From positions 1 to 6,471 of IMG/VR virus record IMGVR_UViG_2537561829_000009: a DNA stretch of 6,471 nt; one strand, given 5' to 3'. Position numbers and translations under genes: made by a program. The notes below the pieces were generated by a model that ran no database searches, was not told the DNA's origin, and saw only the letters and a list, made by a program, of their open reading frames with translations. Positions 1 to 6,471 of this stretch are shown here, piece after piece; within the stretch, counting starts at the first letter, position 1, and each line of letters opens with the position of its first letter. The stretch comes from a virus. Its lineage: Duplodnaviria > Heunggongvirae > Uroviricota > Caudoviricetes.

Positions 1-315
1 TTCGCCATATTTTCTATATTTTTCAAGCCAGTTGCATACAGTACCAAAGGCTGGTATTCCGTGTTTTACCGCTACTTCACGAACAGAAAAACAGTCATCC
101 ACGACTTCTTTTACTACTGTGAGTTTTAACTCAGCAGAATAGCGTCCTTTTTTACCCGTAAGTATGCTTATCCCATGTTCCCGATAGGCATAAGCCCATT
201 TTCTTACTGTGCAGGGACTGATACCGTACATCCTTGCTACAGATTTCAGACTCAACTCTCCCTCCAGGTACTTTTCTGATACTACCTTTTTGAACTCCAA
301 TGAAAACTTTTCCAT
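1..315 (-). CDS. IS3-family (IS150-group-like) transposase OrfA, N-terminal helix-turn-helix part; start codon inside the window, 3' end runs off the window start
   Basis: Translating the minus strand from the ATG at 315..313 gives 105 codons with no stop down to position 1: MEKFSLEFKKVVSEKYLEGELSLKSVARMYGISPCTVRKWAYAYREHGISILTGKKGRYSAELKLTVVKEVVDDCFSVREVAVKHGIPAFGTVCNWLEKYRKYGE. This ORF is not in the supplied track because it is truncated by the window edge. It has the duplicated HTH pattern (YGIS..TV.KW...Y.EHG, then S.REVA..HGIP...V..WL.KY...GE) that I recognise from OrfA proteins of the IS150 group of the IS3 family. The region is visibly more AT-rich than the phage genes next to it. The family call is from memory, not a search. 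Confidence 0.7.
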   Translation of the reverse strand, partial: MEKFSLEFKKVVSEKYLEGELSLKSVARMYGISPCTVRKWAYAYREHGISILTGKKGRYSAELKLTVVKEVVDDCFSVREVAVKHGIPAFGTVCNWLEKYRKYGE

Positions 316-362
316 GCATCCTCAGTTTTTGGTCTGGTGTCTAACCTTTGGGGCGCAGTTCA
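1..362 (-). mobile_element. Partial insertion sequence (IS3 family), one end only; inner boundary approximate, somewhere in 316..362
   Basis: OrfA occupies 1..315. Read on the minus strand, the 47 nt upstream of its ATG are TGAACTGCGCCCCAAAGGTTAGACACCAGACCAAAAACTGAGGATGC. A TGAAC start about 45 nt before orfA is typical of IS3-family terminal inverted repeats, which would put the IS end at 362. The other IS end is outside the window, so the inverted repeat cannot be confirmed. Confidence 0.45.
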
Positions 363-2818
363 TTACCAATGGACACAACACCGCTGGTATTATTAATTGT
401 AATCGGTCGCAAACTGTTCCATGAACCTAACGTATCTCCTGATGCTGTTAGCATGAAATATGTGCTGCCGCCGTCATTACGGATAAAGAACCCATAGTTA
501 CCGTAAGCAATGCGGAAACCATTTGCATATTTTGAAACGATCTCACCAGAAGACGTTACCCCCCCAGATAATGTGCCACCTGAAAGCGGTAATGCTCCTA
601 CATCAGAAGCTGTTGGTTTGTTTCTGGTGTTATAAGAACGACGCCAGCCTGGCGCATAACCACTTCCATTGTACACATAAATAAATTCCGCATTATTAAC
701 ACCACCATGACCCGATGTTGTTGTCGTTGTAACACGAATAGTGTAATTGCTTGTTGCCTTATTACTAAACACCTCAATCACGGAACCAGATAGATCGATC
801 CTACCGCAACCAGTGTCGTCTATATAATTATTGTTGGCGTAAACCCATGAGCACCGTGCAATCCAATATTTGTTTGAAAATGCACCCTGATTATTTAGCC
901 ACGTTATAAACTGAGCAGTCGTAAATGCTGTTCCGTTACCACTATTTAACCATCCGGCGGCAGCGGTTGGTGCGTTTATATCAGCCGGCTGAGGTCTAAA
1001 TCCAGTCGTGTAAACCTGCTCCCAACCACTTTCAAAACCATAACCGTCTCTTGAAGAACGGTAGAACAGACCACCATTTCTGTAATGCGCCTTCATCTGC
1101 AGGGTCCGGCAACTTCCGACTCCGGTATAGAAGTTAACCAGAATATAGCTGTCGCCAGAGCGGGTGACATTGTAAGCGCCTGATTCGGCATTCCAGGGAA
1201 CGCCACCATCCGCATCGGCATACGTATCCGTTGCCCTTCTGGCAAAAGCAGCCACATGCGCGGCGGTTAAAGTGATATCCGCAGTCAGTGCTTTACCGTT
1301 AACTTTTCGGTTAGATGGCACCCTGCTATTCGCATTGTCATTGGCTGCTTTAACTGCTTTTGGCGTTGCGGCCAGCGATTCACTGGTGCTATCAACAGCA
1401 CTGCTAAGTTTCACAACACCTTTAGTTGTAAGGCTTGCGTCTTCCATCGCAACTGCACCGGCAATCTCTTCAGCACGATCAGCAGCAGCTTCCGCACGGG
1501 TCGCAGCGGATTCAGCAGCAGTTTTGCTCTGAGATGCTGCCGTCGCACTGCCTGCCGCCTCTGTTGCTTTCGTGGATGCCGTCGTGGCGCTGCCCTTCGC
1601 TGCTGACGCCTGTCTGGTCGCCTCATCTTTTGAAGCAGACGCAGATGATGCCGATGACGCCGCAGAACTGGCTGACGATGCGGCTGCCGCCTTAGAGGAA
1701 GCAGCATTGTCTGCTGAAGTCTTTGCATTTGTTTCAGAGGTTTTTGCTGCAGAAGAAGACCTCGCTGCTGCAGTGGCTTGCTCAGTGGCTTTGCCCGCCT
1801 TCGTTGTGGCTGTTGAAGCGGATGATGCGGCGCTTTCTGCCGATTTTCCGGCGGCGGTGGCACTGGCTGAGGCCTGCCCGGCACTTGTTGACGCGGCACT
1901 GGCAGACGACGCAGCCGCTGTTTTTGAACCTGCCGCAGCTGAGGCGCTCTGTCCCGCTGCTGTTTCAGAAGACTTAGCGTTCGTCTCGGACGTTTTTGCC
2001 GCCTTCGCGGAATTTCCTGCCGCCGTTGCCGAGGAAGCTGCATTACTGGCACTTGATGATGCATTCGTTTCTGATGATTTCGCTGCCTCTTTTGAGGCCG
2101 CCGCACCCCGTGCCGAGGTGGCAGCTTCTGACGCCTTTGTGGTCGCGGCGGATGCAGAAGTGGCTGCAGATTTTTGTGACGCTGCCGCATTCGTTTCTGA
2201 CGTTTTCGCGGCACTGGCACTGGTAGCTGCCGCGCTTTTTGAGGACTCTGCGGCGGCAGCACTTTTTGATGCTTCAGTGGCCTTTGTTGATGCTGTTCCT
2301 GCGCTGGAAGACGCTGACTGAGCCGACGACGCGGCCTGTCCGGCTGACGTGCTGGCTGCACGTGCTGAGCCTGCAGCATCAGTTGCACGGGTTGCCGCCT
2401 CACGGGCTGATGTGCCGGCATCGCTGGCTGACTTCTTCGCGGCTGCCGTGTTCTGTGCCACTGCGGACGCGTTACGCGCCACCTCTTCCACCATCAGTTC
2501 AAAGCGGCGCAGTGCCTCCGGACGGACATCATCCTCCGTCATGGCACCGAGAAAATCATTCAGCGTACCCGGTTGTGAGTCTTCATACACGGTGATGGTC
2601 CCGGCATGCGATGGCGGGAAGCCTTCCACCAACAGAATAACGCTGTACTGACCGTACTCAACGTCCATGCTGTAACGCCCGGCTTCATCCGGATTTTCTG
2701 AGGCCACCGTGTTCGCCACCACCGTGGTGCTGTTACGTTTTGCTTTCAGCTGGATTGTACAGTTCTGTACCGGTTTACCTGCACCGTCTTTCAGTACACC
2801 TGAAATCTTTACTGCCAT
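341..2818 (-). CDS. stf: Side tail fibre protein Stf (lambda Stf-like N-terminus and Ala/Ser/Thr-rich rod; divergent C-terminal domain; probably 3'-truncated by the adjacent IS)
   Basis: The track ORF 341..2824 begins MNMAVKISG with a GTG; the likely true start is the ATG at 2818..2816, preceded by GGGGTGA as a Shine-Dalgarno about 6 nt upstream. The N-terminus MAVKISGVLKDGAGKPVQNCTIQLKAKRNSTTVVANTVASENPDEAGRYSMDVEYGQYSVILLVEGFPPSHAGTITVYEDSQPGTLNDFLGAMTEDD matches lambda Stf as I recall it. A long KTSETNA-type Ala/Ser/Thr-rich rod follows. The C-terminal part carries tail-fibre motifs (GALPLSGGTLSGGVT, GFFIRNDGGSTYFMLTASGD). The stop TAG is at 343..341, only 25 bp from the IS orfA start. Confidence 0.88.
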   Translation of the reverse strand: MAVKISGVLKDGAGKPVQNCTIQLKAKRNSTTVVANTVASENPDEAGRYSMDVEYGQYSVILLVEGFPPSHAGTITVYEDSQPGTLNDFLGAMTEDDVRPEALRRFELMVEEVARNASAVAQNTAAAKKSASDAGTSAREAATRATDAAGSARAASTSAGQAASSAQSASSSAGTASTKATEASKSAAAAESSKSAAATSASAAKTSETNAAASQKSAATSASAATTKASEAATSARGAAASKEAAKSSETNASSSASNAASSATAAGNSAKAAKTSETNAKSSETAAGQSASAAAGSKTAAASSASAASTSAGQASASATAAGKSAESAASSASTATTKAGKATEQATAAARSSSAAKTSETNAKTSADNAASSKAAAASSASSAASSASSASASKDEATRQASAAKGSATTASTKATEAAGSATAASQSKTAAESAATRAEAAADRAEEIAGAVAMEDASLTTKGVVKLSSAVDSTSESLAATPKAVKAANDNANSRVPSNRKVNGKALTADITLTAAHVAAFARRATDTYADADGGVPWNAESGAYNVTRSGDSYILVNFYTGVGSCRTLQMKAHYRNGGLFYRSSRDGYGFESGWEQVYTTGFRPQPADINAPTAAAGWLNSGNGTAFTTAQFITWLNNQGAFSNKYWIARCSWVYANNNYIDDTGCGRIDLSGSVIEVFSNKATSNYTIRVTTTTTSGHGGVNNAEFIYVYNGSGYAPGWRRSYNTRNKPTASDVGALPLSGGTLSGGVTSSGEIVSKYANGFRIAYGNYGFFIRNDGGSTYFMLTASGDTLGSWNSLRPITINNTSGVVSIGNELRPKG
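1470..2430 (-). repeat. Low-complexity Ala/Ser/Thr-rich repetitive coding region inside stf (fibre rod)
   Basis: Stf residues ~130..450 are almost entirely A/S/T/K/E/G with recurring units such as AAKTSETNA, KSSETAAGQSASAAAG and SSASSAASSASSA. The DNA is GC-rich and lacks stops in several frames, which produces the long overlapping track ORFs 1411..2421(-), 1572..2321(+) and others. Boundaries are approximate. Confidence 0.6.
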
Positions 2819-2828
2819 ATTCACCCCA

Positions 2829-2856
2829 CAAAAAAGCCCGCCAGAACCGGCGGGCT
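2829..2856 (-). terminator. Putative intrinsic (rho-independent) terminator between lom and stf, oriented for minus-strand transcription
   Basis: Perfect 8-bp stem 2835..2842 (AGCCCGCC) pairing with 2849..2856 (GGCGGGCT), 6-nt loop AGAACC. On the minus strand the hairpin is followed immediately by TTTTTTGTGGGG (complement of the A-run 2830..2835). The plus strand has no T-run after the hairpin, so it is unidirectional. It lies 27 bp downstream of the lom stop and overlaps the stf ribosome-binding region. Confidence 0.6.
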
Positions 2857-2882
2857 GTCATAACACTGTGTTACCTGGCTAA

Positions 2883-3482
2883 TCAGAACTTATAACCGAC
2901 ACCCACGATGAAACCGTCAGTGCGCCAGTCGCCACTGCCGGAGCCTTCATAAGCGACATCAATGGCCACGGATTCGGTCGGGTTAAACTGCACGCCAGCC
3001 CCCCACGCCAGAGACATGTTGCTGTGGCGACCGTCATCACTTCCGGTCAGCACATCGTGCGTTTTCCCCTTGTTGTCAGTTACGCGGAGATAATCCCCGG
3101 AGAAAGTCGACACACGGCTGTAAGCCACACCCACCATCGCATACGCGCTGAACCATTCATTCACGCGTACAGACGGCCCCGCCATCACGCTGAACCAGCG
3201 GTTACGCACGGAATCTTCATGCCAGCGGGTATCGCTGTAGCGCGTTTTTTGCTCATCCTCAGCATTGGCATAACTGAAGGACGTAATCAGCCCCAGCGCG
3301 TCCGTAAACTCATAACGGTATTTCACGTTAATCCCGTTCAGATTATCGCTGCCGGGAGCGTTCGTACGGGCATGAAGATACCCTGCGCTCAGTGTGGCCT
3401 GCTGCTCAGACGCCCATGCAGGCGCACCGGATACGGCCAGACAGATGGCTGCGGACAAAATGGCTGCACAAACTTTACGCAT
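2883..3482 (-). CDS. lom: Lom outer membrane protein (Ail/Lom/OmpX-type 8-strand beta-barrel; lambdoid prophage moron)
   Basis: 199-aa ORF with ATG at 3482..3480 and GAGAGG Shine-Dalgarno about 6 nt upstream. N-terminal signal peptide MRKVCAAILSAAICLAVSGAPAWA with an A-W-A cleavage motif. C-terminal ...GFIVGVGYKF ends in an aromatic residue, as outer-membrane beta-barrels do. The sequence is near-identical along its length to lambda Lom as I recall it (NLNGINVKYRYEFTD, RWHEDSVRNRWFSVMAGPSVRVNEWFSAYAM, LAWGAGVQFNPTESVAID). Position between J and stf matches the lambda gene order. Confidence 0.93.
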   Translation of the reverse strand: MRKVCAAILSAAICLAVSGAPAWASEQQATLSAGYLHARTNAPGSDNLNGINVKYRYEFTDALGLITSFSYANAEDEQKTRYSDTRWHEDSVRNRWFSVMAGPSVRVNEWFSAYAMVGVAYSRVSTFSGDYLRVTDNKGKTHDVLTGSDDGRHSNMSLAWGAGVQFNPTESVAIDVAYEGSGSGDWRTDGFIVGVGYKF

Positions 3483-3504
3483 AATTACCTCTCGCTTTTC
3501 TGCA

Positions 3505-3530
3505 ATAAAAAAGGCGCCATTTCTGGCGCC
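3505..3530 (-). terminator. Putative intrinsic terminator between J and lom, oriented for minus-strand transcription
   Basis: Perfect 7-bp stem 3513..3519 (GGCGCCA) pairing with 3524..3530 (TGGCGCC), 4-nt loop TTTC. On the minus strand it is followed by TTTTTTAT (complement of the A-run 3507..3512). It lies 20 bp downstream of the J stop and about 20 bp upstream of the lom Shine-Dalgarno. Confidence 0.6.
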
Positions 3531-3549
3531 CGTATATGGGTTATAAAAT

Positions 3550-5073
3550 TCAGCTGATACTGATGCCTGCGGTGGCTTTCTTCATCACCACAACCAGCAA
3601 ATCGCTGATACTTGCTGTGGGATACCAGTTATTTACCAGCCATGATGACACCGAAAACTCCAGCGTCATGTGGCCGCGACCGGCAGGCATATCAATAACG
3701 CCACTGTAAATCAGCGTATTATCCAGCGCGGTACGGTTATAAATTTCAGCACCGTTTTTCCGTACTATCAGGCGGCATGACGAATAAATATCGTTATTCT
3801 CCCTCTCATGTTTAGCGCCGCTGAATGCCACCGCCGGAATAACAATCTGCCGGTCAAACGGCTGATCGTCATAAACCCTGACGGTGATGGTCCCTGATGG
3901 CCACCGTTCCGGTGCACGGGAGTCCCGGGGGAAAGCTTTGCCCACTGTTTTAACGAGATCGCCTTCAATCTGGTTGGCGGACAGTTTTCCCAGAACCCGA
4001 CAGTTCTCGTTAATCGTGACGTTGTTGAGCGTCCCGGAGTTCGCATTCACGCTGCCACTGATATCTGCATTTTTCGCCGTCAGCCGCCCGTTCGGTGTCA
4101 GGGAAAATACCGGAGGATTACCGCCGCTGGTAATGGTGGGAGCCGTCAGGCGTTTCAGGAACACGTCGTTCATGAATATCTGATCGCCCTGCCCAACAAA
4201 CATCGGCTTTGTGTTGCCATTCGCAGGATTAATCATCGCAATCCTGTCTGCCGCCAGCAGCACCTGACTCTGCATGCCGTCAGGGGTGTTCTCAATACCG
4301 GCACCAATACCCGCGATATAAAGGCGTCCGTCCTGCATCTGCTGCAGCTTCACAGCCCACATGCTGTTCAGGTTATTATTTGTATCAACCTGAACCTTCT
4401 GTATCTGCTGGATCGCTGCACTCTGGTCTTCCAGTTTCTTATTGACGGTCTGTGTGATTTCATTGCTGACATCCGTAATGGACGTCCTGATTTCAGCCAG
4501 GTCAGGCGCAAGCTGACCGTTATCAATCTGCGTCCACAACTCCTGGGCCAGATGTGTTTTCCCGATTTCTCCTTTGAAAAAATCCAGATAGCCGGATGCG
4601 TCATCACTCGGCTGACCAACAGCCTCCACGAATGCCGATTTGCCAACGGTGTTCACACTGCGAACGTAAAAATAATAATTATGGCCCGGCCTGATATTGA
4701 TACTGGCGGCTATCCAGTACAGCGCCGTACCAAGATAGCGGGCTGTGGTTTCAACCTGCCTGATATCCGCAATCCGCTTTTCCGAGAACCAGAACTCAAA
4801 CTGTACCGTCGGGTCATAAACGGCAAGATGCGGCGTGGCGGTTATCTGAAAATAGCCCGGCGTCAGCTCAAGCCGCGACGGCACTGCAGGTGCGGCAATC
4901 CGGAACGATACCGATGCCGGATCGCCCTGCTGCCCCCACGCATTTACCGCCCGGACTGTCAGCCTGTAGTTCCCTGGCGCCAGCTGCGTGAAGCGGTATG
5001 TGGTTTCCGTCGTCCGGGCCGTGCTGACCAGCCGCTCACTGCCGTCATCCGCTGCCACGGTCAGGCGAAGCAA
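3550..5073 (-). CDS. J: Intact C-terminal segment of J (fibronectin-like and receptor-binding region); a gene caller would report it as a separate CDS
   Basis: Track ORF 3550..5073, 507 aa. The 5073 start is an ORF-finder artefact (TTG inside the J frame). Content is J-like throughout ([64 protein letters not shown]). The last ~150 aa differ substantially from lambda J. Confidence 0.55.
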
Positions 5074-5449
5074 AGCTCACCCCTTCACCACCTTCGGCGT
5101 GTCCCAGCGCCAGCACCTGTATTCCCCGCTGTCTGCGGTGACTTCGGCGGTCAGTGCTGCACGCTGGCGGCGTGACACCATTCACCGTGCCGCTCTGGTC
5201 CGTCAAAGTGCGCCCCGTTATCCACGATGGCTTCTTTTCCGGTACATGCTGCACGCAGTGATGGCATACGTACCGTCGTCGTTCTCACGGATACTCACAC
5301 AGCGGAACAGGCGCTGGCGCAGCGTCGGCAGCTTCAGCCCCCACACGCTGTATCGGCAACGCCGTCAGGAACCCGGCTCACTTTCACCTTCACGCCGTCG
5401 GTGAGGACTGACCTCCACGCTGACCGGATCCCTCCGTCAACCAGGCTTA

Positions 5450-6471
5450 TCAGCGTGGTCCGGAGGATGGCAGCGTGATTTCACGGTCGAGCGTCAGCGT
5501 CCGGGTCTGGCTGTTCACCGCCAGCACGCGCCCCGGTGCTGATACCGGCATAGTCATCATCGCAGATTTCAATGACATCCCCGGTACATGGCGAAGCCCT
5601 TCGCACCCACGCTGAAGTCCACGGTCTGCGTTCCAGCAGTTCGTTTTAATCAGCCACAGCCCGGCGCGGTGTGCCTGCCCCCGGCTGGTACAGCCAAAAG
5701 CATCCATCTTCGTGACGTTACGACCGTAACGGGCAATGGCCTGAGTATCTTCAACAAGCTCTGTCGCCGTCTCCCAGCCGTTGTTCGGGTCAATCCAGTT
5801 CACCTCAACGGCATTATGGCGGTCCTTCAGGGCGCTGAAGCTGTAGCGGAACGGCGCACCATCATCCGGCATCACCACATTACTGCGGTTATAGGTCCAC
5901 ACCTTATCTGATGGTCGGTCCTGCACGAACATCAGCGTCTGCCCGTTCCATACCGGCATACAGCGCATCGCCGAGCAGAAATCACTGAGCACATCCCACG
6001 CCTTGCGCTGTGTGGTCAGGTACGCATTACAGGTGATGCGCGGCTCCGTGCCGCCAAAGCCGTCCGGCACCGACTGGTCGCAGTACTGGCCGATGACATA
6101 CAGCGCCCATTTATCTACATCCGCTGCACCAAGACGTTTCCCCATGCCGTAGCGCGGATGGGTCAGCATATCCCACATACACCAGGCCATGTTGTTGCTG
6201 TATGCTGGCTTAAACGTTCCGTCCCAGATACCGCTGTATTGCCGCGTCTGCGGGTTATAGTTCGACGGCACCTGCAGAATGCGCCCGCGCAGATGATAAT
6301 TACGGCTCACCTGCTGGCTGCCGAACTGCTCCGAATCCACCTGTACGCCGACCAGTGCCGTGTTCGGGTAGCACTGTTTCACATCGATGATTTCGGTGTA
6401 TGACGACCAGAGCGTTTTGTTCTGCAGCTGGTCTGTGGTGCTGTCCGGCGTCATCCTGCGCATCCGGATAT
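5450..6471 (-). CDS. J: Upstream in-frame segment of J (5' end beyond window) ending at a premature stop created by frameshifts
   Basis: Track ORF 5450..6463, which continues in frame to the window edge at 6471. It is a clean J match down to about 5642; the last ~65 codons before the TGA at 5452..5450 alternate between J-matching and out-of-frame stretches. Confidence 0.5.
   Translation of the reverse strand, partial: IRMRRMTPDSTTDQLQNKTLWSSYTEIIDVKQCYPNTALVGVQVDSEQFGSQQVSRNYHLRGRILQVPSNYNPQTRQYSGIWDGTFKPAYSNNMAWCMWDMLTHPRYGMGKRLGAADVDKWALYVIGQYCDQSVPDGFGGTEPRITCNAYLTTQRKAWDVLSDFCSAMRCMPVWNGQTLMFVQDRPSDKVWTYNRSNVVMPDDGAPFRYSFSALKDRHNAVEVNWIDPNNGWETATELVEDTQAIARYGRNVTKMDAFGCTSRGQAHRAGLWLIKTNCWNADRGLQRGCEGLRHVPGMSLKSAMMTMPVSAPGRVLAVNSQTRTLTLDREITLPSSGPR

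Follow-up and report, generated by a model that had tools for sequence, protein, structure and literature searches.

The gene J of the prophage sequence analyzed here is open on both sides of a stretch of about 570 bp and broken up within it, which raises the question whether the gene has decayed in the prophage or whether the sequence itself is at fault. The window, by which we mean the whole stretch of DNA that was analyzed (6,471 nt), corresponds over its full length to the contig AQAB01000100.1 (6,471 bp, reverse strand), as was found by an exact look-up of the IS-truncated Stf protein. This contig belongs to the draft assembly GCA_000356805.2 from the enterotoxigenic Escherichia coli (ETEC) isolate P0302293.3. 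The window carries a lambda-type tail module on the minus strand with the gene order J-lom-stf, to which the following features were assigned:

3550..6471, minus strand: J, lambda-type tail tip gene, nt 533-3480, with 95-96.5% identity to annotated J genes
5644..6471, minus strand: 5' flank of J, in frame, of the L010 (13KWH46) type according to segment comparison with intact alleles
5073..5643, minus strand: deletion block in J, J nt 1362-1957 (approximately residues 454-653), from alignments to intact J genes
3550..5072, minus strand: 3' part of J, in frame, deposited separately as the 507-aa protein ENE18355.1, with a TTG start at 5073
2883..3482, minus strand: lom, Ail/Lom outer membrane protein, 199 aa, identical in L004 and NCCP 13717
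341..2818, minus strand: stf, side tail fibre gene, N-terminal 825 aa, shortened by an IS insertion
1..356, minus strand: end of an IS3-family insertion sequence with the N-terminal part of the transposase; the contig stops within the element

The gene J and the origin of the contig

In the ORF listing of the window, J is open at 5450..6463 and 3550..5073 and broken up between these two segments. The first 532 nt of the gene are absent, since the contig ends within its 5' part. The contig is thus bounded by repeats, with J nt 533 at one end and the inside of the IS3-family element at the other, and a contig that leads in this way from one repeat (J) to another (IS) is what an unresolved repeat node typically looks like. 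Apart from this, J is of the ordinary lambda type. It shares with phage lambda gpJ, the tip attachment and host specificity protein, the gene order J-lom-stf and a nucleotide identity of 95-96.5% with gaps counted, and its position within the tail module is that of a lambda-type J, whereby homologues of M, L, K, and I are located upstream in L004 and L003. The intact J of L004 (contig AQEP01000006.1) contains the domains FNIII-A_GpJ, Phage-tail_3, Ig_J, Ig_J_second, Phage_Tail_Tip, and Ig_GpJ_C, all above the Pfam cut-offs, and the 507-aa fragment of the window contains Ig_J, Ig_J_second, Phage_Tail_Tip, and Ig_GpJ_C. According to the domain coordinates of the L004 protein, the deletion block extends from the end of the Phage-tail_3 domain across a linker into the first Ig-like domain. 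No biological difference from lambda gpJ was found; the window copy differs in that it is cut at nt 533, forms a patchwork of haplotypes, and is 26 bases short.

Isolates of the P0302293.x series are described as ETEC that came from patients with diarrhoea in Bangladesh (PMC5469772, Table 3; PMC10904246). According to the sequencing descriptions of the project (PMC4462620, section 6; PMC5469772, section 13), several colonies from each patient were sequenced on the Illumina HiSeq platform, with a read length of 100 bp and an average coverage above 200x, and the Celera Assembler was used for assembly. The isolate P0302293.3 is not named in the main and methods text of PMC4462620 and PMC5469772, and the sequencing method given there most likely applies to it as well. 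The isolates of the series appear to be related to one another.

The missing bases were located by global alignments of the minus strand of the window J to three reference alleles, namely L001 (E. coli ATCC 43896), L003 (NCCP 13717), and L004, which is a draft of the P0302293 series. Each alignment contained 26 gap columns, and all 26 missing bases were deletions in the window that lay between plus-strand positions 5073 and 5643. Correspondingly, a query of 1101 nt across the block covers 1127 nt in every intact relative. The missing bases form 22 deletion events, 18 of 1 nt and four of 2 nt, which add up to a net shift of 2. With their positions anchored on polymorphic columns, the missing bases are J nt 1362, 1374, 1404, 1428, 1476, 1479, 1551, 1578-1579, 1581, 1586, 1605, 1612, 1665, 1764, 1782, 1821-1822, 1860, 1869, 1905, 1916-1917, 1947, and 1956-1957. 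Outside the block, no indel was found relative to L004 across the whole 6,471 nt, which comprise J, lom, stf, and the IS part.

These results agree with the first-pass annotation, which had been made from the sequence alone, in that the frameshifts are confined to a block that it had placed at 5074-5642 and in that J is in frame for about 820 bp upstream and about 1520 bp downstream; the measured flanks are 828 nt (5644..6471) and 1523 nt (3550..5072). Its estimate of ten or more indels, mostly deletions, pointed in the right direction and was too low, as every one of the 22 events is a deletion. Eight of the nine J peptides that it had quoted from the three minus-strand frames were recovered verbatim, and the ninth reads TLISLVDG instead of ALISLVDG. 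The alignment to J homologues with the sequence context of each indel, which it had proposed as a check, yielded no continuous frame through the block and an ordinary homopolymer context.

Coincidence of the missing bases with differences between J haplotypes

The positions of the deletions turned out to be highly selective. When the window was aligned by dynamic programming to a pair profile of L001 and L003, all 26 deletions were placed on columns that are polymorphic between L001 and L003; the alignment needed no insertion, and every window base agreed with at least one of the two alleles. Only 42 of the 760 columns in this profile are polymorphic, which corresponds to a hypergeometric P of 1.3e-37 for the coincidence of 26 out of 26. 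A null with 42 randomly marked columns, which was run through the same alignment in 80 trials and which allows for alignment slack, placed on average 4.1 and at most 9 of the 26 deletions on marked columns. All 26 columns are likewise variable in a panel of nine intact J alleles that includes lambda J (L007), and they show the same split into two groups, hereafter X type (L001, L009, and largely lambda) and Y type (L003, L004, and L011). Furthermore, 20 of the 26 missing bases occupy the third codon position (binomial P of 6.7e-6), a bias that characterizes natural allelic variation under purifying selection and not sequencing error. Most of the deleted bases lie in runs of length 1 or 2, with a mean of 1.6 as the per-base background. 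Homopolymer slippage was discarded as a cause on account of these ordinary run lengths.

If the gaps are filled with the bases of either haplotype, one continuous J frame is obtained, whereby the two fills differ at six amino acid positions. With the Y-type fill, the window J shows 99.5% identity to real J genes. For the X-type fill, no real allele in the panel or the complete genomes equals the window, the best one reaching 98.5%. At twelve X/Y sites within or beside the block, scored as L001/L009 versus Y type, the window has retained the Y base, and at three sites (J 1468, 1494, and 1545) it has retained the X base. Given the best X-fill match of 98.5% and these retained bases, a second J copy would need to be a mosaic that lies outside the panel. 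Differences between the haplotypes carry on at either side of the ~570 bp block.

We therefore regard the block as very probably a collapsed or chimeric consensus of a multi-copy J in which the polymorphic columns have been lost, and not as a real biological feature. The proposed course of events would be as follows. Several lambdoid prophages are often present in one genome, so that J occurs in multiple copies. Over J nt 1362-1957 the reads of two J copies that differ in haplotype would have been merged by the assembler, and wherever the copies disagreed there would have been no consensus base, either through the call of a gap or through the removal of an ambiguity symbol ahead of deposition. 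In this way, a single SNP between the copies would lead to a deletion of 1 nt and two adjacent SNPs to a deletion of 2 nt. On both sides of the block, the consensus would have tracked one or the other copy, which would leave a patchwork of haplotypes in J.

The leading explanation of the first-pass annotation had been a patch of low-quality sequencing or assembly. This was correct insofar as the block appears to be an artefact and not natural decay, and it does not hold with regard to random errors, since all 26 missing bases sit at haplotype-polymorphic sites. Bases missed at random in a patch of low quality or low coverage could account for small deletions only, within one short block that is private to one assembly. 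Such errors would have no reason to fall on haplotype-polymorphic columns in 26 of 26 cases (P about 1e-37) or to prefer third codon positions, as 20 of the 26 do, with no enrichment in homopolymers; they would also be expected to bring insertions or bases foreign to both haplotypes, and neither was seen. In addition, the Illumina data of the project are described as having more than 200x average coverage (PMC4462620), and indel errors are rare with this type of data. At such a coverage, low base quality is unlikely, which makes a mis-assembled multi-copy repeat the better reading. Overall, we consider random sequencing errors very unlikely.

Another possible origin is a loss of bases after deposition, in the preparation of the scan or of the database, whereby the deposited record itself would be intact or would contain ambiguity codes. 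The stripping of IUPAC codes at mixed positions would yield exactly the pattern described above, and the window indeed holds no letters other than A, C, G, and T. However, the protein ENE18355.1 (507 aa) was annotated by the submitters under E. coli P0302293.3 and starts right after the last deletion. Its presence in GenBank means that the frame was already broken in the submitted sequence, and a loss after deposition thus has very little probability. It is possible that ambiguity codes were stripped on the side of the submitters before deposition, which would be a variant of the collapsed J consensus.

J in related drafts and the patchwork in the window

A consensus merged from several J copies should be restricted to one assembly, and this is what was found. 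The 507-aa J fragment occurs on no second contig in the look-up collection, and the deletion pattern was not found anywhere else in this collection or in 5,426 complete genomes. L004 is a 568-kb contig that carries an intact J (1159 aa) together with lom, stf, and IS sequences identical to those of the window. L020 (AQAE01000065.1, 5.4 kb) contains J-lom-stf with the same lom and stf sequence as the window where it is covered; the contig starts within J and cuts the gene at nt 496, and it stops inside stf before the IS site. In both L004 and L020, J reads through the block and has the Y-type bases at all 26 sites. A third draft contig, L005 (AQAA01000228.1), begins only after lom, and J is located on a separate contig there. 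Among the RefSeq complete E. coli genomes, none exceeds 96.5% identity across the block. A 31-mer spanning two of the deletions had no exact match in the species-representative contigs, which is uninformative, since the source of the window is not a representative.

These comparisons also bear on genuine pseudogenisation, that is, on a prophage J that has truly been killed by 22 small deletions. This prophage has suffered damage already, as an IS3-family element splits its stf, and selection on its tail genes may be relaxed. Nevertheless, the drafts of the series with identical lom and stf have a J that reads through, the deletions are accompanied neither by nonsense mutations nor by unique substitutions, and the pattern recurs in none of the collections given above. 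Moreover, no known mutational process deletes exactly those sites that differ in another allele. A decayed pseudogene would carry lesions that are inherited by relatives and that are blind to SNP sites and codon positions, and the lesions found here are of the opposite kind. Pseudogenisation is therefore extremely improbable. The first-pass annotation had stated that J, if the indels are real, is dead and that the prophage cannot make an adsorbing tail tip; this conditional does not apply here, because other drafts of the series have a J that reads through the block at the same locus. Natural decay was rejected together with programmed frameshifting and diversity-generating mechanisms, as all changes are deletions, occur on one contig only, and are located at inter-allele SNP sites.

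The deletions might also be real in another sense, if recombination between two diverged J copies had produced a heteroduplex of about 600 bp that underwent an unknown mutagenic processing. This would be a new recombination-associated mutational signature, in which mismatched bases are excised without being replaced, and we attach next to no probability to it.

In favor of a merged consensus, more than one J copy per genome is common. The number of J-like places per complete E. coli genome has a median of 2 and goes up to 14. NCCP 13717, which is the nearest complete relative, has three such places, and the ATCC 43896 chromosome carries an X-type J copy as well as a largely Y-type J copy. We infer that P0302293.3 itself carries at least two J copies. 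The true J next to this lom and IS3-interrupted stf is in all likelihood intact and the same allele as in L004.

The remainder of the window J shows the haplotype patchwork that would be left if the consensus switched between copies. Over J nt 533-1282, the sequence is of the L010 type with one mismatch in 750 nt, compared to 20 mismatches of the same flank to L004. The backbone of the block is of the Y type except for the three sites with X bases, and about 300 nt on its 3' side are of the L001/L009 (X) type with no mismatch, versus 14 mismatches to L004, which is of the Y type at these places. The 3' end of the window J is again of the L003/L004 type. No real allele is identical to either of the in-frame flanks, the best ones showing 98.7% and 99.6% identity; this fits a chimeric or mosaic J, and it is not diagnostic by itself. 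Relative to L004, the window is 100% identical over plus-strand positions 1..3629 and has 73 substitutions in J, which occur in patches that match other haplotypes. Such patches beside 3.6 kb of perfect identity are unexpected between isolates that share this locus, and they agree with a path of the assembler that leads through several copies of J. The J of L020 differs from that of L004 by 65 substitutions, which are mostly located at places other than the 73 of the window. Thus, the J alleles on short contigs of this draft set are probably chimeric.

A separate observation concerns L014 (JARAGK010000045.1, 1061..5933), which encodes the same Lom and comes from an unrelated draft. Its J is also split and is divided into ORFs of 920, 252, 60, and 254 aa, which include overlapping duplicated J segments, and this J is either mis-assembled or rearranged.

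Known lesions of this kind, consequences, and the adjoining stf and IS3 element

When short reads from a repeat are collapsed, the usual outcome is that the contig breaks or that the consensus takes the base of one copy. The window shares with collapsed or chimeric short-read consensus sequences a target gene that is generally multi-copy in E. coli, the short contig bounded by repeats, the errors at differences between the copies (26 of 26), and the restriction of the pattern to one assembly, with related assemblies that are discordant with one another. It differs from the usual outcome in that the disagreeing columns have been dropped altogether, which results in frameshifts. A genuine frameshifted prophage tail gene is known as well, namely stf of laboratory lambda with its single-base frameshift. 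Genuine cases resemble the window J in that small deletions break the frame of a tail gene; however, they comprise one event or a few, which relatives inherit, whereas the window has 22 events in 570 bp that are absent from the other drafts of the series.

The main value of this analysis lies in quality control. ENE18355.1, which is annotated as a "fibronectin type III domain protein" of 507 aa, is very probably a by-product of a mis-assembled repeat, and the J "pseudogene" should not be counted as an instance of prophage decay or of a lost adsorption function. J sequences from short contigs of these drafts are unsafe for allele typing or for the inference of host range. The pattern may serve as a diagnostic beyond this locus, in that clustered deletions of 1-2 nt at inter-copy sites, combined with a bias toward third codon positions, point to a merged repeat rather than to mutation or to poor sequence quality.

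The lesion in stf looks genuine, unlike the frameshifts in J. An IS3-family element of about 1.4 kb splits stf after codon 825 and leaves a short new C-terminus (window 1..~383; L004 12463..13876). The junction between stf and the element was placed somewhere within plus-strand positions 357-383. Three draft assemblies encode the same truncated Stf protein. L004 resolves the insertion in full, and the 3' part of stf, tfa, and potBA come after the IS there. In L005 (2568..12542), the genes that adjoin the IS behind the truncated stf have Pfam matches to a Na+/H+ exchanger, Peptidase_S66, SLT, PilZ, and trehalase. This set of genes resembles the cvrA-ldcA-emtA-ycgR-treA region of E. coli K-12. 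The difference between L005 and L004 behind the IS may be due to a rearrangement mediated by the IS, or else the assembly may have been joined differently across it. Finally, a gene of 245 aa has been called on the strand opposite to stf (window 1584..2321, plus strand; L006 4151..4888). It overlies an Ala/Ser-rich repeat region and has no family match, and the call is most likely spurious and due to the biased composition.
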